DNA of 64,000 bases from Mobula hypostoma (Eukaryota), in the NCBI RefSeq assembly GCF_963921235.1, contig NC_086097.1:96536001-96600000 (forward strand), given 5' to 3'. Shown piece by piece: positions 15,591 to 58,000 of this stretch. Both the position numbers and the translations under genes were made by a program. The notes beneath the pieces were generated by a model, which worked only from the letters and a program-made list of their open reading frames with translations, ran no database searches and had not been told where the DNA came from. The stretch's first letter is position 1. Every line of letters starts with the position of its first letter.

Positions 15591-15661
15591 TTTATGGTAG
15601 ATGTTCTCAATGGTGGGCAATTGGGTGCCGATAATCCGCTAGGAATACCCCTATATTCACT

Positions 15662-15862
15662 CACAACACGCTGGAGGAACTCAGCAGGTCGGGCAGCATC
15701 CATGGAAAAGATCGGTCGACGTTTCGGGCCGGAACCAAAGAGTTCCGGCCCGAAATGTCGACCGATCTTTTCCACGGATGCTGCCCGACCTGGTGAGTTC
15801 CTCCAGCATGTTGTGAGTGTTGCTTTGATCCCAGCATCTGCAGATTATTTTGTGTTTACAAT
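15662..15862. mobile_element. Fold-back (hairpin) Penelope mini-element
   Basis: Near-perfect inverted arms of about 75 nt around the loop CAAAGA, one-sided tail; 14-bp TSD CCCCTATATTCACT at 15648-15661 and 15863-15876. Confidence 0.9.
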
Positions 15863-16964
15863 CCCCTATATTCACTAGTGGAAAATTGTGGCATGTACAA
15901 TTTGAAGTCCATAACAATAGGCTCATCATAAACATTAAAATCAACCAAAGGGATAGCATAGCAGCAGTCCCTTCCCACCCCATTACCATCCCAGAGGCCC
16001 CAAAATGCATATATACATATCAAATGGTCAAAATCTAATACCTGCAATTATAGTGAGGAAGACTGTTTAAAAACCAAAATGGTGCACAGAGTATATGATA
16101 TTACAGTCTGGAATCTTGCCAAAAACAATCTAGAGCCTTGCATTGTTCCTATCAATGGAAAGATCTCTGACTTTGGTGGATGGACACAAGATGATTATTT
16201 TTGCCTTCTACCTTATTCAAGATCTTTCCTTAGTAGTTTCCCCATCTCTACCAACCATAACCTCCTCAACTGCCTGTACTCAAATACTTCCACCAACTCT
16301 ACTTAGTAGAAAATACTTAGCCTTCAAGTTAAAATTCTAATATTTTTGGATTCTGATGAAAAGTTATTGACCAGAATAATGCCTTACTCTCCCCAGAGTT
16401 TCCTAACCTTGGGTAGGGATACTTGTTAAGAGATCGAATCATCCAAACTTCTGACTTCATCACCTGACAAGGATTCCTGATGATGTCTTTGAAATAATGC
16501 TTAGTCTATTTCTTAAAATAAAGTCTAATTCTCTACCCTGATACCCACAAGTGCTGAAGAATCTACAGGTGAATCTCAATTCAAAGGCTGTCTATTTCTA
16601 CGTTTCCTTCCAATGCTCCTTGGAAGAAATAATCGCTTACTATTAAACTTGTGAATCATCTCATTTCATTCACCCTTTCCTCATTTCCATTCTTAGTGTT
16701 GCTCATTTACCTCAGCAAGACCTTCCTGTTCTAACTCCATATACCTCCATTCTCCTAATATCCAAAAACGCATCGATCTTATTTTGGACATATTTAACAA
16801 TTAACCTTACACAAATCATTTGGGTTGAAGAAGTTCCTTCTTAAGGTGTTTGTCATTTAACACAGAGTTATTTGAGTTTGTGACCCCTGTTTGATCCACT
16901 TCAGACAAGAGAAACATTATCCCTGCATCAATATTACTGGAAATACTCAGCAAGTCAGACATCA

Positions 16965-17580
16965 GTGTTGTGGACTTCAGAAAGGGTAAGATGAGGGAAG
17001 ACGAGGGAAGACATACCAGTCCTCAGAGGGGTCAGAAGTGGAGAAAGTGAGCAATTTCAAGTTCCTGGGTGTTAATATCTCTGAGGACCTTACCTGGTCC
17101 TAAAATATCAATGCAGCAATAAAGAAGGCAAAATAGCAGCTATATTGCAGTGGGAGCTTGAGGAGATTTGGTATTTCACCTAAGACATTTGCAAATTTCT
17201 GTCGATGTACTGTGGAAAGCATTCTAACTAGCTGCATCACCATTTGGTATGAAGAGGCTACTGCACAGGATCGAAGTAAGCTGCAGGAGTTGTAAAATTA
17301 GTCAGCTCCATCATGAACACTAGCCTCCATAATATCCAAGACATCTTCAAGGAGCGGTGCCTCAAAAAGGCGGCATCCATTATTACGGACCCCTCTGACC
17401 AGGACATGCCCTCTTCTCTTTGTTACCATCAGGAAGGAGGTACAGAAATCTGAAGGCACACACTCAACGATTCAGAAACAGTTTCTTCCCTTCTGACATC
17501 CAATTTCTGAATGGACATTGAACCCATGAACAGTACCCTCACTACTGTTTCTTTACTTCTGCTTTTGCACTACTTACTTT
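16965..17580 (+). mobile_element. Rex1/Babar-like LINE 3' fragment
   Basis: FKFLGVNISEDLTW, RCTVESILTSCITIWY and LPSGRRYRNLKAHTQRFRNSFFP. Confidence 0.85.
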
Positions 17581-17855
17581 AAAAAAAAGTCAATGGGTTC
17601 TAATGAAAGCTCATTGAACTGAAACATTTTTTTTTCCTTTCTTAACCAGCTAAATATTTTCACTCTCTTCTGCTTTTACAAATAGCCCACTAGTACTCAG
17701 GCTGAAAATAAAGCAGTGTAAACGTTATTATAATGGTCACATACACCTAACAGTATGAAATAATATTACTGAATAATTTTGTATTTCTCAGTCCATAAAC
17801 TTGAAATGCACATAGGCGCACATTTGATCACAATTCAGTGTAATACTTCACTCAC

Positions 17856-17999
17856 CCTTCTTCACTCTCTGTTTCAGCATTGCTCTTAGTCCTAGTGTTG
17901 GCTGTGAAATAGATGGAATTTGATTGAACAGAATTACTTCTTTCTCTGCTAGATCCTGTTTTCTTCGCTGGTACTTTATGGTATCGCTCTAAACTTGAC
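17856..17999 (-). CDS. RMDN3: RMDN3 (PTPIP51) coding exon 3, containing the FFAT-like motif
   Basis: 144 nt, acceptor ACAAAG| and donor |GTGAGT, phase 2 to phase 2; translates (R)SSLERYHKVPAKKTGSSRERSNSVQSNSIYFTANTRTKSNAETESEE(G), matching mammalian [30 protein letters not shown]. Confidence 0.93.
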
Positions 18000-18558
18000 C
18001 TTTGTTAAAAAGAACTTATCTTAGTGCATAATGTTCTTCTTACACACTATCTTACATAAGAGCCTGCATAGTACTAGAAAGGAAACTTCCTATCTTAGTC
18101 TGGAGAGTCTTAACTTCCTAATGAAGACAAGTTGCTCATTAGAACCTTGATAAAAGACTATGGAGACTTTGTTAGAAGTAGCTTTCATTTAATTAAGCCA
18201 TAGCAACTAAAATGTTGAATATTCTTCTTTAAAACTAACTTGTAGTTTTGGAAAAGGTAGTAAAGCAACATTAAACTGCATGACACCCATCAACCTGATT
18301 TTTTTTTAAATTGCCAGTTATTTAATATTTCATGTTGGAAATACTTGAGTGTTTAAATTCATAAGAATATTTCTGTCAAATGTTTTAAAAGGAACCTAAA
18401 ATACTATTCCTTCTTGCACTCTGAATTTATGAAACAGTGTGACACAGTGGCCAGGTTTGAAGCACTCTAAACAGTACACTTAATTTTGTTCTATGTTTGG
18501 ATATTGCCAACACCCATTGTGTTTGAAATGTAGAAGCAAACCATTGCAAAGATAGCTC

Positions 18559-18757
18559 AACACATTAAAAACTGGAGGAACTCAGCAGGTTAGGCAGCAT
18601 TTAATAAGGTAAGTGGACAGTCAACTGGTCCACGTGAAAGATCTTGACCTGAAATGTCGGTTTCCTATTTCACTCCATTGATGCTGCCTGACCTGCTGAG
18701 TTCCTCCAGCACTTTGAGCGTTGCTCCAGATCTCAGCATCTGCAAGTCTTGTGTCTC
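18559..18757. mobile_element. Older, diverged fold-back Penelope mini-element
   Basis: CTGGAGGAACTCAGCAGGTTAGGCAGCAT ... ATGCTGCCTGACCTGCTGAGTTCCTCCAG inverted arms plus a CAGCATCTGCA tail. Confidence 0.75.
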
Positions 18758-19579
18758 TTTTGCTAATTGCTGCCCATTTATAAAAACAACACAAAGAAAA
18801 TGGGCTAGATACAGGCAAGGCACAGAATTAACCTCAGCAACACAGCATAAAACATCAGGAGTAGGTTAAATGCATCATAAGCTTGAAACATAATCTGCAA
18901 TGAAACATTTAATTTTAAAATTACATTAGTTAGACAAATTAATCTAATAAAGATCTGAAAATGAGCAAAACACTGCATGTGAAGTTGGAAGAGGAAAAAG
19001 TAGTAGTGTTGGCAGAAAGATGTGGATAGCAGGCAGTTGAACTTTAAAATACAAACCTTATGTATTCATAACCAGTTTGCAGGACAAAATCTTGGAAATA
19101 CTTTTGACAGCAGTGGCTGATCTCAGCAATCAAATATCCACTTGGAAACTGATTTTTGGTTAGTGGAACTTATAATTTGTACATCAATGTCAGACAAGTG
19201 AAAGAAGCAATTGTTATCCCCAAGTTACAGAGAATGACCCTGCTTGGAACACTCTTCTCTTACCGATTCCAGACAGATCCCAAATTGCTTTCTCTTAATT
19301 TCCACAATCTGTATCCAATCTCTAGTTCAAAACACAAGGGAGCCTGTCACTGGCAATATGTGAAAATGCAGCTGTGCAAACCAGATGCCAGCAGAATCCT
19401 TCACCTGATTTAGTTATTGAAAGAAGGGATAATTCAAATGTGTTATTTAAACCATCTACTTAAAGATGCACCCCATCCCATTTTTTTTATTAAGATGCTG
19501 TGTTGATAAATGAATGTGGATGTTAAATGTACTTGCAAGAATGAGAAACCGAAAGGAATAAGTATTAGTCCAAAAAAAA

Positions 19580-20075
19580 ACTGTATTAAAGGAGTTGGTG
19601 AGCTTGAAAGCTGAAATGTTTGAAGAATCCAATCATTTTATTGAGGGTGTTAAAAAGAATGATTTTAGAGATAGTGGATGCGCTGGTTATCTGCAATTGT
19701 TCCTGTGGATTGGACAAGAGCAAATATGATCCTACTATTTAAGAAAGGAGGGAGGGAGGAAATAAGGACTTAGCAACCTGTCAGTTTACTGTTAGTAGTA
19801 GGGAAAATCCATTAATCTATAATGAAGGAAGGAATGATAGAACACTTTGAAAAGAATAACAGAATTGTGCAGAATCAACATGGACCTATAAAAGGAAAAT
19901 TGTGTCTGAGTAACCTACTAGAATAGATAAGAGGGAACCAATGGATGTCATGTATTTGGGTACTGGAGGGCTTTGTACAAGGTGTTACAGGGGAAATTAG
20001 TTCACAAGGTTAGAGCACATGAAAGATGGAGCAATGTACTGACACAGACTGAAAATTGGTCATCAGACAGAAAGC
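19580..20075 (+). mobile_element. Old CR1 RT fragment
   Basis: PIFKKGGR-like and QNQHG..KGKLCLSNLLE sequence; heavily degenerate. Confidence 0.65.
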
Positions 20076-20439
20076 CGGAAGTTTCTTTTGAGCAGCGGCC
20101 AATCGGAGATCTGAAGCATGAGAAGATGTAGCTCACTCAGGTTTGCCGAATGAGTACATAAGGCATAGACTCATAGTAGCTTGGCATTTTGAACAGTGGA
20201 CAATCAACAATTGGGATTAATTGGCAAGAACAAATTAAAATAAGGCAAGGGCAAGCAGAACAGCCATCTTTGGAGCGGACAGATTTAGAGTTGAGATTTT
20301 GAGGCTTTAGCTCTTCAAGGAGGAGGCTTGTATGAAAAAAAAAGTTGTAGGTAGATTCTTCCCAACCACCCCCCACCCCCACACACACACAGTTTATTTA
20401 TTGTTTTCCTTCTGCTACTCCCATACTATAAAAAGACTA

Positions 20440-26300: not shown

Positions 26301-26330
26301 ATAAAGAAATATAAAACTAAAAGATACAAA

Positions 26331-28328
26331 GACGAGAAAGGCAGCAGATGCTGAAAATCCAAAGCAACACACACAAAATGCTGGAAGAACTCAGCAGGTC
26401 AGGCAGCACCTGTAGAAATGAATAAATAATCAACATTTCAGGCTGAAACCCATCTTCAGAGCTAAGGAAGGGGGAATATGCCTGAATAAAAAGGTAGGGG
26501 GAGGGGAAAGGAGCTTCCAGGAAGGTGATGGTGAAGCCAGGTGGGTGAGAAAGCTCAAGGGCTGGAGAAGAAATAATCTGATAGGAGGGCGGGTACTGTA
26601 GTCAGAATGTGTGTGGCACAACTGGCAGGTGTTTACTGACATTTTTAATCTCTCCTTCTCCCAGTGTAGAGTGCCCTCCTGCTTCAAAACATCCACCATT
26701 GTCCCTGTACCTAAAAAGACCAACTGAACAACTGGTGTCCTGTCGCACTCACCTCAATAATTAGCAAATGCTTTGAGAGGCTGGTCAAGGACTACATCTG
26801 CAGTATGCTACCACCTGCACTGGACCCATTACAATTTGCCTACTGACACAACTGATCGACAGATGACACAGTAACCACAGCTCTACACAGTGTCCTTACA
26901 CATCTGAAGCATCCCTCTTCTCATGTGAGAATGCTGTTCTTGGGCTACAGTTCAGCTTTCAACACCATAATTCCCTCCAGGTTCAACAAGGTGGTCCAAG
27001 ACCTCAGCCCCATGCCTTGTGCAGCTGGATCCTGGACTTCCTGTCAGATCGCTGGCAGGTGGCAAGATGGGCTCCTTCACTTCTGCCCCTCAACACAGGA
27101 GTCCTCCAGGGCTATGTCCTAAGCCCCCTCCTTTACTCTCTGTACACTCATGACTGTCGCCACCCACAACTCCAATCAGCTAATTAAATTTTCTGATGAT
27201 ACTACATTGATTGGCCTTATCTCAAATAATAATGAGGCAGCCTACACAGAAGTCATCACCCTGACACATTGGTGTCATGAAAAGAACCTTTCCCTCAATG
27301 TCGCAAAAACAAAGGAGCTGGTTGTGGGCTACAGGAAGAACAGAGACAGGCTCACCCCTATTGACATCAATGGATCTGGGGTTGAGAGGGTGAACAGCTT
27401 CAAGTTCTTTGGTAACACATCACCGAGGATCTCACTTGGTCTGTACATACTGGCTGTGTGGTGAAAAAAAACAAAACAGCACCTCTTTCACCTCAGACGG
27501 CTGAAGAAGTTTGGTATGAGTCCCCAAATCCTAAGGACTTCCTACAGGGGCATAATTGAGAGCATCCTGACTGGCTGTATCACTATCTGGTATGGGAACT
27601 GTACTTCCCTCAATCGCAGAGAGTGGTGTGGACAACCAAGCGCCTCTGTAGATGTGAACTTCCCACTATTCAGGATATTTACAAGGACAGGTGAGTAAAA
27701 AGGGCCAGAAGGATCATTGGGGACCTGAGTAACCCCAACCACAAACTGTTCCAGCTGCTACCACCTGGGAAACGGTACAGCAGCATTAAAGCCAGTACCA
27801 ACAGGCTCCAGGACAGCTTCCTTCACCAGCCACCAGACTGATTAATTTACACTGACACAATTGCATTTCTAAGCTATATTGACTGTTCTGTTGTATATCT
27901 TACTGTACATACTATTTATTACAAATTACTATAATTTACACATTGCACATTCAGACAGAGATATAACGTAAAGATTTTTACTCCTTATCTATGTAAAGGA
28001 TGTAAGAAATAAAGTCAATTCAATAGGAGAAAAGGAAGGAGAAGGGGACCAGGGAAAGTAATGGGCAAGTGATAAGAAGAAAAAGGTCAGAATGAAGAAT
28101 CCTATTAGATTCTTTCTTCTTCAGCCCTTGACCTTTCCCACCTATCTGGCTTCACTTATCATCTTGCAGCTAGCCTCTTTCCCCTCTCCCCAACTTTCTA
28201 TTCAGGCATCTTGCCCCTTCCTGCTAGGTTCCAAAAAAGGGTCTCGGCCTGAAATGTTGACTGTTTACTCTTTTCCATAGATGCGACCTGACCTGCTGAG
28301 TTCCTCCAGCAACGTGTGTGTGTTGTAC
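26331..28328. mobile_element. Inverted Penelope terminal-repeat element interrupted by a Rex/Babar LINE
   Basis: Minus arm at 26331-26587 and about 28030-28090, plus arm at about 28097-28328; TSD AAGATACAAA at 26321-26330 and 28329-28338. Confidence 0.82.
26588..28022 (+). mobile_element. Rex1/Babar-like LINE (RT to 3' end)
   Basis: [68 protein letters not shown] at 26581-26587 and 28023-28029. Confidence 0.9.
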
Positions 28329-33240: not shown

Positions 33241-33412
33241 ACCAGTACTATATGCATGAGACACTGCTTCAAAAAGGCAACATCTATCAAAGATCCTAGC
33301 TATCTGGGCCATGCCACCTTCTCTCTGCTACTGTTGGATAGGAGGTACAGGAGGCACGGAAGGCTGAAGCCCCCTGATCACCAGCTTCAAGAGTAGCAAC
33401 TTCCCTTCAAGT

Positions 33413-34840
33413 GAAAGAGATAAAGGGCTGGAGAAGAGGGAATCTGATAGGAGAGGACAGAAGACCAGGAAACAAAGGGAAGGGGGAGGAGCATTGGGGG
33501 GGGTGATGGGCAGGTAAGGAGATAAGGTGAGAGAGGGAAATGGGAATGGAGAATGGTGGGGGGAGGGGAGCAATACTGGAAGTTCTGTAAATGTACGTTC
33601 ATGCCATCAGTTTGGAGACTACCCAGATGGAACACAAGGTGTTGCTCCTCCAGCCTAACCGTGGCCTCATTGCAGCAGTAGAGGCTATTTACTGGCATGT
33701 CGGAATGGGAAGGAGAATTAAAATGGGTGGCCACAGGGAGATCCAGAACCAAGATGTCCTCCTGCTTCAAAGAAAAGGGCTTCCCTTCCTCCACCATCAA
33801 CGCTACCCTCAACCGCATCTCTTCCACTTTCTGCACGTCTGCCTTCACCCCATTCTCCTGCCACCCCACCATGGATAGATTTCCTCTTGTCCTCACCTAC
33901 CACCCCACCAGCCTCCAAGTTCAACACAAAATTCTCCATAACATCCGCCAACTCCAACAGGATCCCACCACCAAGCACATCTTTCCCTCCCCCCACTTTC
34001 TGCTTTCCGCAGGGATTGCTCCCTACGTGTCTCCCTTGTCTATTCGTCCCTCCCCACTGATCTCCCTCCTGGCACCTATCCTTGCAAGCAGAACGAGTGT
34101 TACACCTCCTCCCTTAATACCATTCAGGGCCATAAACAGTCCTTCCGGGTGAGGTGACATTTCACCTGAGTCTATTGGGGTCCTCTACTGTATCCGGTGC
34201 TCTCACTGTGGCCTCTTGTATATTGGTGAGACTGACATAGATTGGGAGACCACTTCGCTGAGCACCTACACTCTGCCCGTCAAAAAAAGCAGGATCTCCC
34301 AGTGGCCACCCATCTGAATTGCATTTCCCATTCCGACGTGTCAGTCCATGGCCTCTTCTACTGCCACAATGAGCCCACTCTCAGGTTGGAGGAGCAATAC
34401 CTTATATTCCGGCTGCACAGCCTCCAACCTGATGGTATGAACATCGATTTCTCGAACTTCCGATAATGCCCCCCCCCAACTATTCCCCGTTTTCCTCTCT
34501 CACCTTATCTCTTTACCTACCCATCACCTCCCTCTGGTGCTCCTTCCCCTTCCCTTTCTTCCATGACCTTCTGTCCCCTCCTATCAGATTCCCTCTTCTC
34601 CAATCCTTTATCTTTTTCACTAATCAACTTCGTAGCTCTTTACTTCACCCCTCCCAGTTTCACCTATCACCTACTACCTTGCATTTCTTCCACCCCTCCC
34701 TCAACCTTCTTACTCTGACTTCTTGTCTTTTTCTCCAGTCCTGATGAAGGGTCTTGGGCCAAAGCGTTGACTGATACTCTTTTTCATAGATGCTGCCTGG
34801 CCTGCTGAGTTCCTCCAGCATTTTGTGGGCAGTGCTTTGT
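33413..34840. mobile_element. Neptune-like Penelope element with a 5' inversion
   Basis: Minus segment to about 33738 (PVATHFNS..LEEQHLVFHLGSLQ) abuts a plus segment (FKEKGFP..PLVLTYHP..IRCSHCGLLYIGET..EEQYLIFRL); terminal repeat with CAGTCCTGATGAAGGG at 34736. Confidence 0.87.
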
Positions 34841-38069: not shown

Positions 38070-39960
38070 TCAACTTCATTTTGTCCTCCTTGATTCAGTC
38101 ACCTCCCACCTACATCTATGACACTTTGTGTGGTCTCCACCATTTCAATAACATTCAGTTCCCCACCCCTGACCACCTCACCTTCACCACAGACACCTAG
38201 CTCCTGCATCTTCAATGCCCCATCAGGAAGGGCTCAAGGTTCTCCACTTCTTTCATGACAACACACCAAACCAGCTCCCCTCCACCCCCACCCTCCTCTT
38301 TCTGGCAGAACTGCTACACACCCTTGCAGCTTTTCTTTTGGCTCCTCCTACTTTTTCCAAACCAAAAAGTTATCCATGGGCCCCATGTATGCATGCCCTT
38401 TTGTCAGTTACGTGGAACAATCCATGTTCCAAGCCTACACTGGTAATGCTTCCCCAACTCTTTCTCTACTAGTGAAGATTACATTGGTGCTGCTTTCTGC
38501 ACTCATGTGGAGCTCATCAATTTCATCAACTTCACCACCAACTTCCACCCTGCCCTCAAATTTACTTGGTCTATCTTCAACAACTCTCTCCCCCATCTTT
38601 ATTTGTCTCCATCTCCAAAGACAGATTATCTACCCACATATTTTACAAACCCATTGACTCAGTTATCTTCACTGTACTTCTTCCTACCCTGTCTCTTGCA
38701 ATGGTAGTAAAAGGAGAGTCAGTGTATGCTGTTTACTTGGATTTTCAGAAGGCCTTTGACAAGATGCCAACATGAAACTGCTAAGCAAGATAAGGGCCTA
38801 TGGTATTACAGGAAAGATACTAGCATGGACATCAGATTGGCTGAGAGTGGGAATAAAGTGGTGCTTTTCTGGTTGGCTATCGCTAACCAGTGATGTTGAA
38901 CAAAAGTCTACTATTTTTCATATTACATACTTATGATATGGCTCTGCATTAAACCTGTTTCTGCACCTCTTCCCTTACCACCATTCAGAGCCCTAAACAA
39001 TTATTCATTATTTTAGCTAAGGCACCACTTCATATGTGAATCCAGAGTCATTTACTGCATGTGTTCCAGGTGCAACCTCCACTACACTGCCAACACAGAG
39101 TGAGAGAAAGCATCATGTGAGTGCACCATCAAATACCTTCCCTCTGTCCAATGTAACAGCCAGAACCTCTTGAAAGCCTGCTATTTGAATTCCTCTTCAC
39201 ATTCCCATAAATGCATGTCTGCCTATGGCCTTTTCTACTGCTATGTTGACACCAGTTCAAATTGGAGGAGTAACACCTCATATTCCATCTTGGTAATTGC
39301 CAATCCTACAGCAACATCAATTTCTCCAACTTCTGGCAACCATTCCCCTCTGTTCCCATCCCCTACTTTACTTTCCTTCATCGCTTTTACCCCTTTATCT
39401 CTTCTCTTTACCCTCCCCTACCCATGTCTTGCCTGTCAACTACTTCTTCCTCCCTCTGCTTCCAGACCCCCTTCCTTTTATTCCACAGGATACTAAAAGT
39501 CAAAGTAAATTTATTATCAAAGTACATACATTTCACCATATACAATTCTGAGATTTACTTCCTTGTGGGCATACTCAGTAAATTCAATAGCCATTATAGT
39601 CAATGAAAAACTGCACATATCCTCACTCCTTGACTACACTTCTTCCTACCCTATCTCTTGCAAGGATAGTCAGAGCATCAGTATAAAGTGCAAAGTCCAT
39701 ACCAATCCTGTTACTGCCTGTCCTACTAGCCTCTCCTATCATCTGCCTTCTTCAGCCTTTGCCTCTTCCACCTGTCACTTCTCAACTTTTCACATCATTC
39801 CCTTCACACCTTCCTTCTCTTACTTGAATTCATATATCACCGGCCAGCTTATGCACTTTTCCCTCCCTCACCTTTTCATTCTGGCTTCTGTTCTTTCTTT
39901 CTTTCTAGTCCTGATGAAGAGTCTCAGCCTGAAGTGTCAACTGTTCATATCGCTCCATGC
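38070..39960 (+). mobile_element. Fragmented Neptune-like Penelope element with a CR1 piece inserted at about 38701-38900
   Basis: HQEGLKVL, MGPMYACPFVSYVEQ, NFHPALKFTW; insert VYLDFQKAFDKMP; decayed hammerhead AGTCCTGATGAAGAGTCTCAGCCTGAAG at about 39907. Confidence 0.78.
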
Positions 39961-40652
39961 TACAACCATAGACTGCAAGATACAGGAACAGAATTAGGCC
40001 ATTTAGCCCATGGATTCTACTTCCCCAGTTCAACCATGGCTGCTTTATTTTCCCTCTCAACCCAATGCTCCCATCTTCTCCCTATACCCTTCACCTTACT
40101 AATCAATAATCAACCTCCTTTTTAAATATACCTCCACATCCATTTGTGGCAATGAATTCCACAGATTCACCACTCTCTGCTAAAGAAATTCCGCCTCATG
40201 TTGCTGCCTGTTTTGCTCAGTTCCTCCGGTATTTTGTGTGTTATTCCAGATTTCCAGCATCTGTAGTCTCTCATAAGATTCTCTGCAATTTGTTTCTGAT
40301 CTTGGGCACTGTATACAGTACTGGGAATTCTAATTACCTTTTGTAGGTGAAACATATGCACTAGATCAGTTCCCCATATTCCCTTCCGATCATATTTTAA
40401 ATGGACTACAAAACAATTGAAGCATGTTTGTAGAGTTGAAAATGCCCTATTTGAAGAGAAATTGTTGAATATTTTGTTGAGAGAAACTCCCAATATTAAC
40501 AACTACAATAATTTGAAATGGGGAAGAGAGTGCATGGGTTAACAATACAGAATGCAAACAAAGCGGATACTATTTGCGGGAAGGGACGCTTATTTATACA
40601 ACAGGATGAATATAGCCACACCAACAATGACCCACTCAGCTTTATCGCTCAC

Positions 40653-42975: not shown

Positions 42976-45889
42976 ATATGAAAAAGAATTTTTCCAGGTA
43001 TCTTGTCTAATGTTTTCCCCTTATTAACAGCTGGTATTTTATTTAGCAAATTTATTTTTATCAAGATGCTACCAAGCAAAACTTGACATTCAGTCACATG
43101 TGTATGTATTTGTGTACAATTGGCCAGAAACTTGGGAGACTGAGACAGACTTTTACTCAGGAATTCCAGATCTTGAGACCAAGGCAGCTAAAAACCTGAA
43201 CAGCAACCAAAATATAATTATAAAATTGTTACAGCACAGACGAAGACCATTTGGTCCATCAAGCAGTACCCATTTAGTAGTCACGTTCTAATTCTGAAGT
43301 ATTGCAATATTTTTACTTAATGAAGTTATTTATTGAAATCCATAATTAAAACCTTACCTGTCATCTATTCAAGCAGTGAATATAGCTGTCCACTATACTT
43401 GGATGGGGGTAGGGATTGGAGTCAGAGTCATCATTGTGTCTTTTGGATATTTTACCAATCCTTGCAAGCCTGTATCCTCTGCTTTTTGACAGTTTTGCTA
43501 AAGGTGGCAGTTTATACTGCCTGGATTCTACATGATTTTGAACAGTTTTATCAAGCCTCAGTGTAATCTTCACTCCAGGAAGTGGTATCAACCTCATCTT
43601 CTCAGTGTATTAGCATAACCGAGATACTTTTTTTCACAATTTAAGGTTTCTTTGTCCCTCTCTTAGATCTTCATATTTTTTCTAAATTGTAATGCCCAGA
43701 ATTGGGTGCAATAGTGCACTTGAAACCAAATATGTTTTATAAAGGGTAAACAGCTTTCTTTTATACTCTCGGCTTCTATTTGTAAAACAACACCTATATG
43801 CTATTTGAATTACTTACTCAATTTGTTCTGCCATCCTCAAAGACTTGTGCACATATATTTCTTCAGTTCTTTTAATTCATGCATAATTTAAAAAATTATT
43901 TACTTTAGATTATATTGCCTCCCCCACCTGGTTACATCTAATTTACCTACTACTGGTCTTCCCCTTCCCCTCATCTGGTTCCATCGATCACCTACCATAC
44001 TCTGACTCACCCCACCTTCTGACTCATAGAAATGGACTTTCTCACTCTCTCTCACCCTCGACTTTTATGCGGGGTCTCAGCCCAAAATGTCTGCTGCAAT
44101 ACCCTTGCCTGCACAAATGCTGCTTGACCCACTCCAACAGTTTTTATTTGCTTCAGAAGACATTAATGTGGCTCCAGAGTTGCATATTCATAAGAATAAC
44201 AAGTTTCCTTTCTTGAACTAACTCTGTTTTATCACATCACTGTAATTCTGTGGTTGTCATTACTAATCTCAGCTTTTTATTAAGAACCTGCATAATTTAT
44301 TTATTTAGCTGAAATTCAATTCACTAGCTGCCAGCAGCTGTGAAAAACTACATTATGTCATTACTTTTTACCCGCTTGAAGGGGCAATCATGTGGCTGCA
44401 GTGTTGCATATTAACAAGAATGGCAAATTTCCTTTCCCGATCTAGTTGTATTTTAACGGTTTTGTATCTAAGCTGCCAAGGCCCTTTTGATTTAAAGTGG
44501 TTCAATTTTGCTTATGTATATTTTATGTAGAGTTTACCAAAGACCTTTAGAATGGCCATTTACCAATCAACACACACTATTCCCTCATAAAAAAATAAAT
44601 TGGGTTGATCAAATTTGCCGCCTTTCTTTTACTTTTTCAAACTTGTTCAATTGTGTTATTAATGTTATTTTGCTTTATGTTTCTACTTTTCCTTTCAATG
44701 AGATCAATCAATCTCCTCAGTGATTGCTTCTTTCCCTTCAGTGAAATGCAATGTATTCTTTTAAACAAGTGTGCAATATTTGCACTCCAGTCCTCTATCA
44801 CCATCTTCACATCTAAGAAGCTTCATAAAATTATGATCAGTATCTCTGCAATATTCATCTCAACAAATTGCAAATGCATTCTGGACACTTGGGTACTTCA
44901 TCCTGCTGTGCAACCAATCTTTCTAATTACTTACCCTTTAAAAAAATTTGCCTTTCAACCAATTTATTTTCCACTTAAAATGTGACATTGACAACATTGA
45001 TAACCTTGTAAATACAAATGCAAAGTAAAAAAAGTTTGCCATATCTCCTTTTGCTTTGTACAATATCTGTACTGGGTTCTTGATCAGCTACATGTGTCTT
45101 CATACCATTTACTATATATATACCGATATGAAAGACTAATATTTTGTGATTTACTGCTGCATTGTATCTTTGGACTTCTTTTCCTTGCTCACTTCCTTCC
45201 CATGGCTACCACTATTTATTCTCAGTAAGAGGGTCAGTACTGTATTCCTTCATTACCATATACAGAAACAAAGGCCAGTATTAGTCTGGAAGTACTAAAG
45301 TGCCCTTACAGATCCAAGGCCTTTGCCACCTGCTACTCCACACTCCAGCCAGCCAGGCTTGTTGCTAAGGGAAAACCACACAGACAGGTGTTGAGTGGGT
45401 GAAGTCTGGTTTGTGATCTTATGGCTAGAGAATCCTGAAGGCTGATCAGAGTCCTCATTCATCATCATCGGTGAGTCCTGGGGTTGATACCAAATATTGA
45501 AGACCAAAGATCAGTCAGAAGTATGGAGGTTGAGGCTTGATGACTGGAGTCCTGTGTCTGCAAGTCCATTGGGGAAGTTGGAGGCCCAACGTCTGCAAAT
45601 CTGAAAGTCCACTGGAGCATGGAAGTCAAAGACGGCCTATTCTGGGGTTGAAGTACTGTGCATGTGTGTGGGTGGTGGGAGAAACAGGGCTTGTTTTGCT
45701 GTTGTTGTTTTGTTGCTTATGTGTTCTGTGTTGTTCTGCCAAGTGTTGTAGGATGCTACATTGGCACTAGAATATTGGCACTTGTGGGCTGTGTTTAGCA
45801 TGCCCTTTACTTGTGTTTATTGTTAATGCAAATATCTCATTTCACTATATGTTTTAATGTACATGTCATCAGTAAAGGAATCTGAATCT

Positions 45890-46570
45890 GGTGAATTGTA
45901 ATTCAGAACATTATGACATGATTCATTTTTCTATGAAAAATGAGTGACAAATATAAATGAAACAGTTTAAAGAACATGTAGAAACAGAGATAGGAAGATG
46001 TTTATACGATATTATTTAGAAATGAAAGGGCAAGTTGAGAACAGTAATTAAAATGGATATGGGATCTTTGATTTTGTAAATTGAAGGATAAAAGCAAAAA
46101 CAAGGACGAATCCTACATATTTAAGAGACTGTTTAAGCCAGTTGCAAATTTGGTTATCCATTTTGTGCACCACATTTTAGGAGAGATGATAAGAGAAATT
46201 ACATTGGATGATGCAGTAGAATTCTACTGGAAGAGCAGGACAGTTATTTGGAGAGATTCGAGGAACTGGGATTACTTTTCCTGAAATCAGACTTGGGAAA
46301 TTTGACAGAGATCTTCAAAATTGTGAATAGTTTTGGCAGAGTAAATGAGATAAAACTGTTTCTAATGGTGGAATATTGGTAACAACAAGTAACAGATTTA
46401 AAGTAATTCAGAAAAAACATGAATGATTGTGGAGGAAAATATGGTGGTATTATCTAAACTACATGCCTGAAATAGAAGGAAATACAACAACAGTATGAAA
46501 ATTAGATAAATACTTGAAGAAGACATTTTAAAAGTGTTATTAGAAAAGGCAGGTGAGAAGAATTAATGAA
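45890..46570 (+). mobile_element. Very old CR1 3' fragment
   Basis: Degenerate but colinear with the CR1 3' half seen at 48900-49550. Confidence 0.6.
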
Positions 46571-47693
46571 CTAGCTCTTCCTAAGTTTTGCACAAACAAT
46601 ACAAAGAAAAAATTATCTGTTTCCTTAAGCTCATTGCAGGCGGCAGACAGACATGGGATTTCCATGATTTGCTGTCTACCTCAGAGTGTAGACGTTCATG
46701 CACTGCAGTCATCTAAGCTTGGTCTTTACAGAGATCTCCCTAGCAACTTCACGGTGGGTCTCCATGGCTCCCTCCCTTGCCTAAAGACCATGCCTCCTTC
46801 AAGTACTTCATTAGCAGCAAGTCTAGATTCCTCTAACCACCAGGGAGCACTCTTCCACAGCCCTTGTATTATTGTTACATTTATTCACAGGTATCGTCTA
46901 CAACTGGAAGTTTGTGGCTTGTACTACAGTATGTCCTTTGAGAGCTGGCTGCGGGGAGAGAACCATAGAACTATAGAACACTACAGCACAGAAAACAGGC
47001 CATTCAGCCCTTCTAGTCTGTGCCAAAACTTTATTCTGCTAGTCCCATTGACCTACACCCAGTCCATAACCCTCCAGACCTCTCCCATCCATGTATCTAT
47101 CCAATTTATTCTTAAAACTTAAGAGTGAGCCCGCATTTACCACATCAGATGGCAGCTTGTTCCACACACCCACCATTCCCTCAGTGAAGAAGTTCCCCCT
47201 AATGTTCCCCCTAAACCTTTCCCCTTTCACCCTAAAGCCATGCATCTTTCCTAATCTAAGTGGAAAGAGCCTATTCACATTTACTCTGCCTATACTTATA
47301 ATTTTGTAAACCTCTATGAAATCCCCCCTCATTCTTCTATGCTCCAAGGAATAAAGTCCTAACCTGTTTAATCTTTCCCTGTAACTCAACTCCTGAAGAT
47401 CCAGCAACATGCTAGTAATTCTTCTCTGCACTCTTTCAATCTTACTGATATCCTTCCTATAGTTAGGTGACCAGAACTGCACACAATACAAAGACAGTTG
47501 CAACTGGCTTAAACAGTCTCTTAAATATGTAGGATTGCTCCTTGTTTTGTTTTTATCCTTCAATTTACAAAATCAAAGATCCCATATCCATTTTAACTGC
47601 ACACAAAGACAAATGTAGGTCCCTTACAGTCAGAAACAGGTGAATTGATCATGGGGAACAAGGACATGGCAGACCAATTGAATAACTACTTTG

Positions 47694-47967
47694 AGCAACA
47701 CACATAAAAGTTGCTGGTGAACGCAGCAGGCCAGGCAGCATCGCTAGGAAGAGGTGCAGTCGACGTTTCAGGCCAAGACCCTTCGTCAGTCCTGACGAAG
47801 GGTCTCAGTCTGAAACGTCGACTGCAGTCCTGACGAAGGATCTTGGCCTGAAACGTCGACTGCACCTCTTCCTAGAGATGCGGCCTGGCCTGTTGCATTC
47901 ACCAGCAACTTTTATGTGTGTTGCTTGAATTTCCAGCATCTGCAGAATTCCTGTTGTTTGCGTTTTA
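47694..47967. mobile_element. Fold-back Penelope mini-element with three hammerhead cores
   Basis: Inverted arms of about 95 nt, an extra central 38-nt unit and a 42-nt one-sided tail; 14-bp TSD GAATAACTACTTTG at 47680-47693 and 47968-47981. Confidence 0.92.
47787..47862 (+). ncRNA. Tandem pair of minimal type I hammerhead ribozymes (predicted double hammerhead)
   Basis: Two 38-nt units CAGTC-CTGACGA-(13-nt stem-loop II)-GAAA-CG-TC-GACTG; stem I CAGTC/GACTG is perfect; helix III is reduced to palindromic ACGU; predicted cleavage after 47819 and 47857. Activity not shown. Confidence 0.75.
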
Positions 47968-50844
47968 GAATAACTACTTTGGTTCTGTCTTCACTAAGGA
48001 GGACATAAATAATCTTCCAGAAATAGTAGGGGACGGAGGGTCTAGTGAGATGGAGGAACTGAAGGAAATAGGGAAGTGGTGTTAGGTAAATTGAAGGGAT
48101 TGAAGGCAGATTAGTCCCCAGGGCCAGATGGTCTGCATCCCAGAGTGCTTAAGGAAGTAGCCCAAGAAATAGTGGACGCATTAGTGATGATTTTTCAAAA
48201 CTCTTTAGATTCTGGATTAGTTCCTGAGGATTGGAAGGTGGTTAATGTAACCCCGCTTTTTAAAAAAGGAGGGAGAGAGAAACCGGGGAATTATAGACCG
48301 GTAAGCCTGACATCGGTGATGGGGAAAATGCTAGAGTCAGTTATCAAAGATGTGATAACAGCACATTTGGAAAGCTGTGAATTCATCGGACAAAGTCAGC
48401 ATGGATTTGTGAAAGGAAAATCATGTCTGACGAATCTCATAGAATTTTTTGAGGATGTAACTGGTAGAGTGGTTAGGGGAGAACCAGTGGATGTGGTTAA
48501 TTTGGATTTTCAAAAGGCTTTTGACAAGGTCCCACACAGGAGATTAGTGTGCATACTTAAAGCACACGGTATTGGGGGTATGGTATTGATGTGGATAGAG
48601 AATTGATTGGCAGACAGAAAGCAAAGAGTGGGAATAAATGGGACCTTTTGAGAATGGCAGGCAGTGACTAGTGGGGTACCGCAAGGCTCAGTGCTGGGAC
48701 CCCAGTTATTTACAATATATATTAATGACTTAGACGAGGGAATTAAATGCAGTATCTCCAAGTTTGTAGATGGGTGGCAGTGTTAGCTGTGAGGAGGATG
48801 CAGGGTGACCTGGATAGGTTAGGTGAGTGGGCAAATTCATGGCAGATGCAATTTAATGTGGATAAATGTGAGGTTATCCACTTTGGTGGTAAGAACAGGA
48901 AAACAGATTATTATCTGAATGGTGGCCGATTAGGAAAAGTGGAGGTGCAACGAGACCTGGGTGTCATTGTACACCAGTCATTGAAAGTGGGCATGCAGGT
49001 ACAGCAGGTGGTGAAAAAGGTGCATGGTATGCTGGCGTTCATAGCAAGAGGATTCAAGTACAGGAGCAGGGAGGTACTACTGCAGCTGTACAAGGCCTTG
49101 GTGAGACCACACCTAGAGTATTGTGTGCAGTTTTGGTGCCCTAATCTGAGGAAAGACATTCTTGCCATAGAGGGGGTACAAAGCAGGTTCACCAGATTGA
49201 TTCCTGGGATGGCAGGACTTTCATATGATGAAAGACTGGATCGACTAGGCTTATACTCTCTGGAATTTAGAAGATTGAGGGGGGATCTGATTGAAACGTA
49301 TAAAATTCTAAAGGGATTAGACAGGCTAGATGCAGGAAGATTGTTCCCGATGTTGGGGAAGTCCAGAATGAGGGGTCACAGTTTGAGGATAAAGGGAAAG
49401 CCTTTTAGGACTGAGATGAGGAAAAACTACTTCACACAGAGAGTGGTGAATCTGTGGAATTCTCTACCACAGGAAACAGTTGAGGCCAGTTCATTGGCTA
49501 TATTTAAGAGGGAGTTAGATAAGGCCCTTGTGGCTAAAGGGATTGGGGGTATGGAGAGAAGACAGGTTCTGAGTTGGATGATCAGCCATGATCGTACTGA
49601 ATGGCAGTGCAGGCTCGAAGGGCTGAATGGCCTACTCCTGCACCTATTTTCTATGTTTCTATGTAATACTCCAAATCTGGCCTCACCAATGTCTTATACA
49701 ACCTCACTATAACATCCCAACTCCTACACTCAATACTTTGATTTATGAATGCTAGGATGCCAAAAGCCTTCTTTACAACCCTGTCTACCTGTGACACCAC
49801 TTTCAGGGAATTATGTATCTGAACTCCCAGATCCCTTTGTTCCTCCGCACTCCTCAGTGCCCTACCATCTACTGTGTATTTCCTACCTTGGGATGTCCTT
49901 CCAAAATGCAACACCTCACACTTGTCTGCATTAAATTCAATCTGCCATTTTCTGGCCCATTTTTCCAGTTGGTCCAGATCCCTCTGCAAGCTTTGAAAGC
50001 CTTCCTCGCTGTCCAAAATGCCTCCAATCTTAATGTCATCAGCAAACTTGCTGATCCAATTTACTACATTATTATCCAATGAGGTTGAATGCTTGCAACT
50101 ACATAAATTTCAACAGAGCAAGAAAATATATCATATAAACTGACAATAACTCTTCTATGAACCTTATAATTGAATATCTTTGTGGGATTTTCACGAACTG
50201 TGCTAGGTTCAACTCATCCTCTATGCTAACACCATGAAAAAGACTTAAGCACTTTCTTCCTTTTCCACACTATCACATTTATACTTTTATATTCATCTTT
50301 CAATCTCCCTTATGTTTATTATTCATTTTTTGCCATCTTGTCCTCCCATTCATAACTTATCTCTCCAACACCCAATGGTGACCATTAATTGTGCATGATA
50401 CCACACCTTTTCATTTTGTAAATTTAAGTGTTATTGTAGTAACATTTTTAATCCCATTTGCTCCTCAATCAGTTTACTTAAATACCAAGTTTGCTTGTTA
50501 GATTCCACTGTCTGATGTGGAGGAAAACTTGCAATAAAGACCAGTTGATACTGTGGCTTGATTTACTTGAACCAATATAGAAAATTGACTCTTCATTTTC
50601 TGTAACTTTCACAGTCTAGATGGATGGCACACAGATCAGTGTTCGACCTGTATTTAGATACAACTCAAAAAGAACCTGAATATTGCTCACTAACTTAAGT
50701 GGCGTTGAGGTTCATTTTTAAGGATACATATCGGTTCTGTAGAATCAATGTTCATAACTACGTATTGCTCCCACCTTTTCTAGTAAAAAATTAAATCAGT
50801 CAGAGCTATCTCCCTTGTCTACCTGGTATGCTGTAAAAGACCTA

Positions 50845-52040: not shown

Positions 52041-52051
52041 ATATCCACTAG

Positions 52052-52848: not shown

Positions 52849-54942
52849 TGCGAACAAAATACTCTCAGGCTTCCAGACGAGTATCTATTTTAAATGATGT
52901 TTTGATGACAAACTCTGCCATCTTCATCAGGGATGATGCCTAGGCATGTCTAGTCTGATGGTGTGTGTGTATATATATATCCCTTGACATCTATCCCTCC
53001 TGATTGGTTAGTCCTCATCCAGTCGGACTTCCACTGTCCCACCTTGTTTACAATCGAATTACAGTTCTTACTTAGAACAAGACCTTTGTCTTTGTTAAAA
53101 TTCTTTTTATCCAGTTTTATTTTAATGCCTTCCTTCACCAAGCGGTCCAAAAGCCATTGGGGTAGCACAGTAGTTTTGTGCCGTTGAAGTCAATCCTATG
53201 GCCATTGCGAATGCAATGTTCTGCTACTGCCAATTTCTCTGGGTAATTTTTGCTGCTGCCAATTTCTCCCAAATGGATACACCTCCTGTGCTCCTTGATG
53301 CGAGTTTCCACCATGCGCTCTATCTGGCTGATATAGGCTGCTCCACATTCACAGGGAATGCTGTAAATACTAGCCATCCTGACTTCCAGGTCATCTTTGA
53401 CCTGCATAAGCTGTGCTTCCTTACAGGTTTGTGGATGTATTAATCTGGTATTTTTTCAAGATCCTAGCAATCTTTCCAGAAACTGTGGTATTATAGGGAA
53501 GTTAGGCAGTAGTGACGGGTTCCTCCTCATTGTTAGATTTCCCAGTTTTTCTGTTAGCTCTTTTAAGGGCCTGATTGATTTCTTTCACCTTGTAGCCATT
53601 CTGTAGAAAAGTTGTATGTAATCATCTTATTTTCTCATGGAGTCTCTCCAGGTCTGAAATAATTTTTGCACAGTTAGTCAATGTAGAAAGAACCACTCTA
53701 CATTGGGAGGCATGATGTTGGCTGTTATTGTTGAGGTATAAATCACTGTGAGTGGATTTCCAATAAATGCCATACCTAAGGCTACCATCTGGTTTCCGTG
53801 GTATTAGAACGTCCAGAAATGGCAGCCAACCATTTTTCTCCATCTCCATCATAAACTGAATGTTTGGATGTATACTCTTCAGATGGTCTGTTGGGGTGCC
53901 TAGGGTCCATGCGGCCACACTGCAAAGGTATCATCGACATATCTGAAGAAGCATTTGGAGTGTAAAGGCAATGAACTCAGAGCCCTCTTCTCAAAGTCCC
54001 CCATGTAGAAATCAGCAATAGCCAGCGACAAGGGTGACCCCATGTCCACTCCATCCATTTGTTCATAGCAGTTCCTCTTATAGAGGAAGTATGTTGATGT
54101 AAGGGTGTGTCAAAAAGGTCAATGATACCCTTATGTGAACAGGGACATTACGTCGAAACTGACCATTATGTCCTCCAGAGTCAGCTGGATTCAAGTTATC
54201 GTTTTAACAAAGTCGATCAAATTCATGATGTGATGATCACAATCCCCAACAAAGGGAGGCAGCATGGTCATTAAATACTTATCAAGGTAGTAAGTTGGAG
54301 AATCTATCACACTGACGATAGGCCTCAGGATGTACCCTTGTTGCGTATCTTAGGGAGCCCATAAAATCTTGGTGGTACCAAAGCCCGAGGTAAGTGTGTC
54401 TTGCATATGTCTGCTGGCAGTCCGGATTTCTTCAATAAAGAGGAGGTCATCCTCAACAATCAAATCTGTGGGATCCCACTGTAGGACTCTGTAGGTGGGA
54501 TCGTCCAGAATCTGTTGGACTTTCTTGTGGTATTCCTCTGAGGACATCAGGACTGTGACATGTCCTTTGTCCACTGGTAAAATCATAATGGCTGGGTTTC
54601 GCTGTAGTGCCCGGAAGGCCAGTTGTTCTCCTTCTGTACTGTTTGCTTTCGGCAAAACGGCCATGCAGACCTCTATCCTCACCTCCTCAGCAGTATCCAG
54701 TGGTAGCTTTTGGATTGCTTGCTCTACTCTGCCAATGTAGTCCCGATAAGGTATAGCTCTGGGGTCAGAGTGAAGTTTAACCCCTTGGTGAGGACCGATC
54801 TAGTTGCCGCATCGATACTTTTTCTAGTTTGATTGATGACAATCCTTTCTGTGCCCAATATGGGATGGCTTTACTCTGTTGAGATGGTTTGTTGTATTTC
54901 CTGACCTGCCTCACAGAGTTCCTTTGTGAAACTCATTCACCT
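52849..54942 (-). mobile_element. Poseidon-like Penelope element (RT plus GIY-YIG), degenerate
   Basis: ILPVDKGHVTVLM, MGSPLS, HPNIQFMME..LPFLDV and IYSIPCECGAAYISQ..RIKEH; 10-bp TSD TGGATGGTAT at 52839-52848 and 54943-54952. Confidence 0.88.
52896..52930 (-). ncRNA. Decayed hammerhead ribozyme in the terminal repeat of the Poseidon-like element
   Basis: Minus strand CTGATGA-A-GATGGCA-GAGTT-TGTCATC-AAAA-CATC; 7-bp stem II; two G-to-A changes at CpG sites separate it from GAAACGTC. Confidence 0.6.
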
Positions 54943-55083
54943 TGGATGGTATAGATAGGGACCTCAGGGGCCTACGTTTCAAACTTACTTGCAGCTCCTC
55001 ACACTTTCCATGTTTCCATTTTCATCTGCAGTTGGGAATCTGCCGATTTTGAGGACTGATAGATTTTTAAGCATCTTAAAACA

Positions 55084-58000
55084 ATGAAGATGCTTCGCTC
55101 CGTAGGGTTGATTCTGGTCAGAAGGGGATCCCTGACCGTCATCAAGTTACTGCTCATAAAATTCAAGTAACACAAAAGAAAATTATTGCCACTTGGAATG
55201 TAAGAACCCTATATCAAGCAGGAAGATTGGACAATGTGATAAATGAAATGGAAAGACTAAAGATTAACATCATGGGAATTAGCGAAGTTCATTGGATAAG
55301 TGCTGGAACATACCAGAATAGAAATAAAACACTAATTTATTCTTGTGGAATATCCCATACTAATGGAGTAGGAATTCTTATGGATGACAACATGCAAAAA
55401 GTGTTTGAGGACATTGGGCAATATCAGAAAGAGTGCTCCTTGTTAGATTCAGAGGACAACCATTTGATTCAGCAATTATACAGGTATAAGCACCAACAAC
55501 AGATGGAACAAATGAAGATATAGATAAATTCTATGAAGAGCTTGAACAAGTAAAGAATGGATGCAAATCTCAAGATATTGTTATTGTCATGGGAGATCTA
55601 AATGTTAAAGTAGGACAAGTTGTTGACGGAAACACCATAGGAAAATTTGGACTGGGAGAAAGAAATGAAAGAGGTGAGAAATGGGTAGAATGGTGCAAGA
55701 TGAATAATCAGGACATTATGAATACCTACTTTAAAAACCATCCAAGACGCTTGTGGACCTGGAAAAGTCCAGGTGATAACACCAGAAATCAAATTGACTT
55801 TATTACTATAAACCAAAGATTTAGAAACTCAATGACTCAATGCAAAACATATACAGGTGCAGACTGTAATAGTGACCATAACTCGGTAGTGTGTCATGTA
55901 AAATTAAAACTTAAAAAACTAAAGCAGCAAAAACCTGAACAATCCCTTGACTACTTGCAATTAATTAAAGAAGAAAATTTAAGACAAAAATTTACAATTG
56001 AAGTAAGGAATAGATTTCAAAGTCTAGAAATAGAATCTGTTGAAGATGATAGCAATCATGTAGAAATCAAATTTAACTCTCTAAAGGATGCCTTGGTAGA
56101 ATCAGCAAAGTCAGTGATTCATAAAAAAGGAAAAAGCACAAAGAATAAATGGATGACAGATGAAATCAAAAATCTGATGGAAGAAAGGAGACAGAAGAAA
56201 GCAAATCCTATAGAATATAAGTCCTTAGATAAAAAAGTTAAAAGCTTATGTCAAAAAGCCAAAGAAGAATAGATAAATCAGGAATGTGAACAAGCAGAAA
56301 GAATCCCTATTACAAAAAGGTTACATCAACAAATCAAGAATATCACAGGTAGAAAGCTCCTCTGTTCTTCAGGTGGATATTTGAAAGCAAAGGACGGTAC
56401 CATTATCATGGAAAAAGATGAGATTATAAACAGATGGACTGAGTATATTGAGAAACTGTTTGAAGACGATCGAGGTGAAAAACCAGAAATTAAGAAAAAC
56501 ATTGAAGGTCCAAGTATTTTAAAATCTGAAGTTCGTTATGCAATAAATAAGATGAAGAAAGGAAAGACAGCAGGTCCTGATGAATTAGTAATAGAACAAA
56601 TTATCACCCTTGAAGATTATGTAATTGAAAAACTTACTGATTTAATCAATGACATTTATGAGACTGGAATAATACCAGGAGAGATGAAAAAATCGGTATT
56701 TATCACTCTTCCTAAGAAACCTGGAGCAATAGAATGTGAATTACACAGGACCATAAGTTTAATGAGTCAAATCAACAAGATACTTCTAAGAATTTTGATG
56801 ACAAGAGGTAAAGTAGGATACAAGCTGAAATAGGTAAAGAACAATGTGGTTTTGTGAAAGACAAAGGTACAAGAAATGCAATATTAATGTTAAGGATACT
56901 ATTAGAATGAACTATTCAAGTGCAAAAAGATTTGTTTGTTTTATTGACTACACAAAAGCATTTGATAAAGTGAAGCACAATAAGTTATTTGAAATATTAC
57001 AGAAAACTCTAGATCTGGATTCAAAAGACCTCCGCCTAATGAGAAATCTGTACTGGGAACAAACTGCCACTGTAAGAATAGATGGAGAAGTGAGTCAGTT
57101 TACGAAAATCAAGAGAGGCGTTAGACAAGGGTGTGTTTTCTCCCCTGATATATTTAATATGTACAGTGAAACAGTATTACAAAAAATAAGAGACATCCTG
57201 GGAATCAAATTTGGCAGTGAAAACATCAATAATTTCAGATACGCAGATTACACTGTGTTAATTGCAAGTACGGAGGAAGAACTACAAAACTTAATTGATA
57301 TAGTTGTTGAAGAAAGTGCAAAAATGGGTCCATCTATCAATTGGAAAAAGGTAGAATGTATGGTGATATCCAAAAAGAAGGAGAATCCTATCTGCAGGCT
57401 AAGAATAAACGGGGAAGACACAACAAGTACAGAACTTTTGCTACTTAGGAAGCTGGGTGAGATCAGATGGCGGGTACGACATGGACATCAAAAGAAGAAT
57501 AGGGATGGCAAAACACATAAAAATTGCTGGTGAACGCAGCAGACTAGGTAGCATCTATAGGAAGAGGTACAGTTGACGTTTCGGGGCGAGACCTTTCATC
57601 CTGACGATGGGTCTTGGCCTGAAACGTCGACTGTCCCTCTTCCTATAGATGCTGCCTGGCATGCTGCTGCATTCACCAGCAATTTTTATGTGTGTTGCCT
57701 GAAATTACAACATCTGCAGATTTCCTCGTGTTTAGGGATGGCAAAAGACACCTTTACGAGAATGAACAGTATACTAACCAATACTAAACTAGGCATGACA
57801 ACCCGCCTTAGAGTACTGAAATGTTACGTTTATCCAGTTATGTTATATGGCTCAGAATGTTGGACAATATCTTGTAACATGAGGAAATGAATTGAAGTAG
57901 CAGAGATGTGGTTTTTGAGGAGAATGCAAAGAATATCATGGATGAAACAAATATCTAACGAGGATGTCATGAACAGAGCAAGCACAAAAAGAGAAATAAT

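Follow-up and report, generated by a model that had tools for sequence, protein, structure and literature searches.

Inverted, 5′-truncated copies with a one-sided tail of 30–40 bp are described as a general trait of Penelope-like element (PLE) insertions in the parts covered of three reports (PMC8557442, PMC8969392, PMC2377424). For rotifer PLEs, the sections covered report inverted pseudo-long terminal repeats and target site duplications (TSDs) of 8–10 bp (PMC3846280), and for the anole element Poseidon PAc the sections covered report in vitro cutting and extension of both target strands, with two start sites of the reverse transcriptase (RT) bracketing the tail (PMC11167929). Also, hammerhead ribozyme pairs located 100–700 bp apart on opposite strands are mentioned for Schistosoma in the parts covered of a further paper (PMC4209133). 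In this study, we analyzed a 64-kb stretch of contig NC_086097.1 of Mobula hypostoma (the window), to which all copy counts, arm ends and TSDs given here refer. It contains four short head-to-head insertions, termed minis, built from the hammerhead-containing terminal repeat of a PLE: E1 (15662–15862), E2 (47694–47967), E3 (57514–57732) and E4 (18559–18757), besides two longer siblings (L14 and L26). The minis are real insertions of a known PLE layout and provide a new host example of it; the unusual part is a pile-up of arm ends at helix I of the hammerhead.

A profile search of the window with the terminal repeat gave 24 matches, corresponding to 23 arms after merging of one split copy. The minis E1–E3 are head-to-head insertions of 201–274 bp, each with an exact 14-bp TSD at the place given by an earlier inspection of this DNA (the original prediction). 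Within the window, each TSD word is restricted to its two copies (15648/15863 for E1, 47680/47968 for E2 and 57500/57733 for E3), while as a chance control 3000 random pairs of 30-nt windows with a spacing of 250 bp never shared a word of at least 13 nt (maximum 12). In silico removal of the insert and one TSD joined the flanks of E2 to a continuous CR1-type frame and those of E3 to an RT frame of a long interspersed nuclear element (LINE) with its motif intact. Since two host LINE frames were thereby restored, the TSDs of E1–E3 are regarded as true duplications. The predicted older copy E4 was confirmed as a head-to-head pair, but it has no TSD above chance (best flanking repeat 7 nt) and its arms are only 64% alike over the core.

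A staggered cut of 14 nt as the hallmark of the system could not be upheld. Exact TSD lengths were 14, 14 and 14 bp for E1–E3, 9 bp for L14, 10 bp for L26 and 8 bp for a solo copy at 7828, so that a single TSD encloses the whole unit in five of six head-to-head pairs, the exception being E4. The stagger of E1–E3 is itself uncertain by a few bases, because TSD ends also match the arm (4 nt in E1, 6 of 7 nt in E3) and extension allowing one mismatch leads to 16 (E2) and 18 (E3). For the element as a whole, a TSD mode near 14–15 is plausible. On the nicked strand, WATT follows the tail-side nick in E1 (15640–15650) and E2 (47672–47682), and in E3 (57492–57503) if the TSD is read 2 nt shorter; this resembles the ATT preference of the anole enzyme and was not seen at L14, L26 and 7828. 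Of the LINE sequence left of E2, a 78-bp inverted copy with 95% identity is present (46048–46125 and 47520–47596).

Assembled contigs, among them those of a presumed RNA run, were aligned to a 1.2-kb stretch of the element; two runs each contained about 100,000 contigs matching it. No empty sites of the minis were seen in this alignment, and no paralogous empty LINE site in the window spans an insertion junction. One contig of organism B starting at 15840 suggests a filled E1 site, its element part of only 23 nt being below the 31-nt bridging rule.

The arms of the minis are inverted with respect to each other, with identities of 74/78 (E1), 91/96 (E2) and 78/87 (E3), and hairpin z-scores of −21.6 for E1 and −24.7 for E2. 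To this extent, the proposal of two inverted terminal repeat copies meeting at or near the hammerhead stood. The arms are unequal, however, as one of each pair (E1–E4, L14 and L26) bears a tail of 33–43 nt, and the central junctions, which differ among all four minis, lie mostly 18–32 nt upstream of the predicted cut and not at it, with the exception of one E4 arm at −3. Each of the six head-to-head pairs combines an arm ending at the tail start with an arm that extends to the tail end; the tail start is also the end point of solo copies. A minimal hammerhead could be read in the terminal repeat from its core and helices I and II and was partly recovered by folding. As to the minis being hammerhead-bearing, this applies in full to E2 only: E1 has no complete hammerhead, both arms beginning inside helix II past the CUGANGA box; in E3, one arm retains the core, but its helix I is damaged; and the core of E4 is decayed. 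In E2, an additional tandem hammerhead of about 36 nt is present. This tandem duplication (47780–47865) fuses the helix I strands into a 10-nt palindrome and lengthens helix I to 7 bp; the two complete minimal hammerheads adjoin and could form a dimeric active fold in cis if transcribed.

In a tree over the shared core, in which the bootstrap was not quite settled, E2 and E3 clustered with the open reading frame (ORF)-bearing insertion L14 and with the solo copy at 7828 at a support of 98/96, while E1 and E4 were each placed separately. Correspondingly, core identities of E2 and E3 were 83–90% to L14 and 64–71% to E1, and over the core the E2 short arm is closer to the solo copy (99%) than to its own partner arm (95%). 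As judged from these relationships, the minis are polyphyletic with three or more subfamilies and grade into the inverted insertions of about 0.56 kb and 1 kb in the same window; insertion sizes are 199, 201, 219, 274, about 560 and about 1000 bp. A distinct non-autonomous family, as it had been proposed, is not supported by this; for a dedicated non-autonomous PLE family, propagation as a unit was rejected for the same polyphyly, and propagation from a short transcript starting at helix I is conceivable. Very probably, the minis are de novo PLE insertions and no lineage of miniature inverted-repeat transposable elements (MITEs). Different central junctions, a retroelement origin and no MITE lineage had been anticipated in the original prediction, and so had the formation of the hairpin anew at each integration by priming from both target ends, which is supported by the polyphyly, the junctions and the tail asymmetry and has an in vitro precedent in the parts covered of PMC11167929. 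Non-LTR retrozymes were also considered and rejected, as the units are head-to-head and not head-to-tail, with a tandem of only 36 nt inside E2.

One repeat copy extends upstream via a pyrimidine-rich 3′-untranslated region (UTR) into an ORF end (14920–15180), which links the repeat to its parent element. This ORF end shows 58–85% identity to 12 proteins, the named ones of which are from rays. The related proteins contain RT motifs followed by a CxxxxCxxC linker (in P0001–P0006, P0008 and P0012) and then GIY-YIG; the Pfam GIY-YIG family was matched in six of nine proteins scanned, one of them above the curated cut-off. In the sections covered of PMC8557442, a cysteine linker CX2-5CxxC between the RT and the endonuclease is given as diagnostic of the Neptune type. 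Because of the match to this description, the parent can be assigned to a putative Neptune-type, endonuclease-bearing PLE, the assignment being based on the linker and not on an RT tree.

For the formation of the minis, we favor a route by two independent cDNAs on a long RNA with two nicks, two primings, early stops, a microhomology join and fill-in, which in its full form is probably correct. Each mini would have arisen in a single event, in which the RT/GIY-YIG protein encoded by an abundant PLE of the Neptune type acted on ordinary element RNA. The protein would nick both target strands about 9–16 nt apart; the TSDs are observed, and the nicking is adopted from the in vitro work on the anole PLE. 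From each 3′ end, cDNA synthesis would then be primed at the tail end or the tail start as the two fixed start sites, in line with the observed asymmetry of the six pairs, and the second priming may often be aided by 4–7 nt of microhomology as observed for E1 and E3. Both cDNAs would stop early, close to the hammerhead's 5′ edge and thus at the transition from mixed sequence to a long pyrimidine tract; the positions are observed, and an early stop is their presumed cause. Subsequently, the cDNA 3′ ends would be joined by a repair process via inverted microhomology of 1–3 nt, which in the sequence is supplied by the hammerhead and largely not by the pyrimidine tract. Fill-in would finally leave the TSD. 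The products would be dead on arrival, with the hammerhead serving as landmark and not as cleaver. In the long pairs, the arm ends are unequal by 75 nt (L26) and about 390 nt (L14), as expected for two independent cDNAs.

The positions of the arm ends were read by eye relative to the predicted cut. Nine of the 23 arms reach more than 150 nt upstream and 14 are short; the copy at 44069 was classed as long by eye due to the pyrimidine tract upstream of it and thus excluded from the short ends. These are located at −19, −24, −28, −32, −32, −26, −30, −3, −31, −30, −44, −31, −15 and +21, three of them from old copies and uncertain. The 5′ edge of helix I (−32 to −24), i.e. a span within 10 nt, comprises nine of the 14 ends. 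Counted as one end per insertion, six of nine are in the cluster (p = 2.5e-4 over −150 to +21; p = 6e-3 over −60 to +21), and for the clear cases five of five (p = 5e-5 and p = 9e-4 over the same ranges); these values come from a post hoc test with a uniform null, and four of the insertions had been preselected by the original prediction. None of the 14 short arms ends exactly at the cut, and 12 of them include at least 15 nt upstream of it.

Part of this clustering may be caused by trimming to microhomology. Inverted microhomologies of at least 3 nt numbered 83 in 16 bins over −40 to +39 and 21 in 16 bins over −120 to −41, so that the hammerhead zone has such short matches at four times the density of the 80-nt pyrimidine tract preceding it. 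Since two purine-rich cDNA ends pair poorly, a simple explanation of the cluster is that the ends were trimmed as far as the edge of the hammerhead. Such trimming is not the whole cause, because the solo copy at 7828 starts at −30 without a partner cDNA and L14 and L26 were joined inside the pyrimidine tract, where joining is thus possible. These cases weigh against two independent cDNAs with early stops, as do the arm ends clustering tighter than random truncation predicts and the distance of only 2–6 nt between the two arm ends in E1–E3, which a snap-back of a single cDNA directly predicts. Also, the numbers are small and stem from one window.

Reverse transcription of this PLE may also have a fixed stop, or its RNA a fixed 5′ end, at the helix I edge, which would double as a conserved 3′ splice site as in Drosophila virilis Penelope. 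In this case, the uncut ribozyme, possibly by dimer-pairing two RNAs in a dimeric ribonucleoprotein, would set where the cDNAs end and meet. We regard this as a tentative idea of rather low probability; if true, PLE hammerheads would have a cleavage-free role in vivo, and hairpin inserts would be mass-produced. A related and doubtful alternative, which takes up the short RNA of the original prediction in a shifted form, is a short template, i.e. a discrete non-coding RNA starting at the helix I edge, the run-off cDNAs of which would give both minis and solo copies, or as a variant a hard RT block at this site on a long RNA. Such an RNA could originate from an exonuclease stop at the folded or protein-bound ribozyme, from an internal start, or from processing at a 3′ splice site. 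The end cluster, which includes the solo copy at 7828 and both passes of the E2 tandem duplication, is in favor of it. Also, the helix I edge resembles a splice acceptor, with a pyrimidine tract and YAG in seven long copies, and the parts covered of PMC4209133 place the end of a D. virilis intron where helix I begins on its 5′ side. The resemblance is not independent evidence, because the AG belongs to helix I and the whole UTR is pyrimidine-rich, and no shared upstream exon sequence was seen ahead of the arms, so that a spliced template is not seen. Among the contig joints listed (15 of 523 and 12 of 397), five at 15484–15500 (−43 to −27), one joint falling exactly after the first AG, weakly back the end cluster, but four others lie at +11 to +29. 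The summed depth of contigs has a similar order of magnitude for the repeat and for the ORF end, which speaks against a separate short RNA, depth not being equivalent to copy number. Joints on opposite strands near the cut (15525–15528 to 15706–15711) were rejected as fold-backs, as they represent collinear single arms with the halves best matching different reference copies.

Snap-back, in which a cDNA primed at the tail end stalls, folds via the inverted repeats of the hammerhead and copies itself before the second target overhang captures the end by microhomology, is in our view improbable. The near-symmetric turns in E1–E3 fit this model, in particular that of E2 with a perfect 9-bp stem and a 2-nt loop, and so does the E2 duplication junction, the 10-nt palindrome of helix I strands; self-priming has been deduced from palindromic junctions in the sections covered of PMC3846280. 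The model gives no reason for the tail start being the end point of the second arm in each of the six pairs, a position that is a known RT start site and is used by solo copies too, and the long siblings are asymmetric and the ends of E4 are 28 nt apart.

A collapse of long inverted insertions, which would later lose their center by palindrome-driven deletion, is quite unlikely. Long palindromes are unstable and the window contains long head-to-head copies, but solo copies start at the same place, and the young minis E1 and E2, whose arms are 95% alike, are short already, whereas L14 with 92% has remained long. That the template was the 3′ product of self-cleavage by the hammerhead is scarcely credible: one E4 arm ends at −3, but the sequence upstream of the cut in the short arms contradicts it for E1–E3 and led to the rejection of ribozyme cleavage as template source, and in the parts covered of PMC11167929 insertion did not depend on cleavage and RNA ends at the cut were not found. 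A genuine MITE lineage mobilized by a DNA transposase, which hairpin shape and TSDs might suggest, can practically be dismissed and is refuted for these four copies by their different internal structures and four different junctions, by polyphyly over three or more subfamilies and by unequal arms with an unpaired tail at one end, so that the ends are not mutual inverted repeats.

Table 1. Coordinates of the minis, their TSDs and related PLE copies in the window (positions of arm ends are relative to the predicted cut).
Feature	Position	Strand	Remarks
E1 left TSD	15648..15661		14 bp; last 4 nt match arm end (microhomology)
E1 short arm	15662..15735	-	inside helix II (about -18/-19) to tail start
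E1 long arm	15736..15862	+	starts -24 or -18; tail 15820-15862; without CUGANGA box
E1 right TSD	15863..15876
E2 left TSD	47680..47693		within CR1-type LINE reading frame
E2 short arm	47694..47789	-	ends at CUGA box (-28)
E2 tandem extra hammerhead copy	47790..47825	+	predicted cut before 47820
E2 long arm	47826..47967	+	complete minimal hammerhead; helix I 47826-47829 with 47858-47861; predicted cut before 47858; tail 47926-47967
E2 right TSD	47968..47981
E3 left TSD	57500..57513		within LINE RT reading frame; last 7 nt match arm 6/7
E3 short arm	57514..57598	-	ends about -26
E3 long arm	57599..57732	+	starts -30; hammerhead core present; tail 57700-57732
E3 right TSD	57733..57746
E4 older head-to-head pair	18559..18757		short arm about 18559-18625 (-), ends -3
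E4 long arm	about 18628-18757	+	starts -31, with tail
L14	14587..15599		about 1 kb inverted insertion; 9-bp TSD 14587-14595 / 15591-15599
L14 tailed arm	14596-14917	-
L14 ORF-bearing arm	14920-15592	+	GIY-YIG end, 3′ UTR, hammerhead; same subfamily as E2 and E3
L26	26321..28338		head-to-head pair, about 0.56 kb without inner LINE; TSD 10 bp exact, 13 with one mismatch
Solo copy	7828..7961	+	starts -30; 8-bp exact flanking repeat overlaps element ends

The tailed arm of L26 is on the left and reaches further upstream than the right arm by the difference given above; a LINE (26589–28031) was inserted later into this left arm with a 7-bp duplication. Further PLE pieces were found in the window. 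At 33410–34840, another inverted PLE insertion is located, the left arm of which begins within the 3′ UTR without the terminal repeat and for which no TSD was seen by eye. A minus-strand copy at 60271–60628 consists of the tail and about 45 nt joined directly to an internal ORF segment, by template switch or deletion, and the long copy at 39856–40272 has its terminal repeat interrupted by about 255 bp of other sequence. Decayed ORF pieces at 53135–54799 (minus strand) resemble a second PLE lineage, with DKG-like and GIY-YIG-like motifs by eye and no Pfam match. Apart from PLEs, a near-perfect 62-bp hairpin at 4132–4193 is unrelated to the PLE repeat and gave weak Rfam matches only, and a tandem array with units of about 45–49 bp is present at 60861–61123.

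The Rfam scan gave five weak matches and none to a hammerhead; E2 yields a microRNA match below the threshold. Nine window fragments searched against Pfam gave two LINE RT matches only. Further copies were sought by a pattern scan of metagenome and viral contigs with 0 matches; a shorter pattern gave 19 and 11, which are attributed to chance, as a profile search of the loci gave no match. In the literature covered, from which the PLE reviews of 2005/2006, figures, supplements, Repbase and Dfam were outside the scope, no paper on such minis in rays was found; the passages covered of PMC12910113 contributed nothing further.

The minis illustrate a known PLE insertion pattern in a tidy and minimal form, and they bear on the role of PLE hammerheads and on how inverted copies arise. 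Annotation may mistake such hairpins for MITEs or, as the match of E2 illustrates, for microRNA precursors. In twin priming of L1, the second target end primes on the RNA via microhomology, leading to an inversion within one TSD, and TSDs of about 15 bp are common. It differs from the minis by a second priming at variable internal positions and by a 3′ end that is not duplicated.

The label 'poorly described' does not fit the minis, as their layout is contained in the parts covered of PMC8557442, PMC3846280 and PMC2377424 and close hammerhead pairs on opposite strands in those of PMC4209133. With the PLE inverted insertions of Craig et al. 2021 (PMC8557442), Arkhipova et al. 2013 (PMC3846280) and Schostak et al. 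2008 (PMC2377424), as far as covered, the minis share the head-to-head truncated copy, the one-sided tail, the short TSD and a palindromic or microhomology junction. In contrast to these, both copies of the minis are cut to 75–140 nt with no ORF left, the exact TSD is 14 bp compared with 8–10 bp in the rotifer elements, and the passages covered make no mention of ends piling up at helix I. In the anole Poseidon PAc (Frangieh et al. 2024, PMC11167929), as in the ray element, the hammerhead is located just upstream and is unneeded for insertion; the ray element differs by the Neptune-type cysteine linker, and the parts covered of that paper describe neither a joined two-armed product nor a TSD length. 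The minimal hammerheads of metazoan PLEs (Cervera and De la Pena 2014, PMC4209133) have in common with those of the ray the type I motif, a short helix I, the lack of helix III and palindromic closing bases, whereas most motifs in the minis are incomplete and cartilaginous fishes are unnamed in the parts covered. Finally, the non-LTR retrozymes (bioRxiv 10.64898/2026.07.22.740005), reported in one chondrichthyan genome in the sections covered, are likewise non-coding, derived from PLE terminal repeats and hammerhead-bearing, but they form head-to-tail tandem units, whereas the minis are head-to-head one-offs with a tandem only inside E2.

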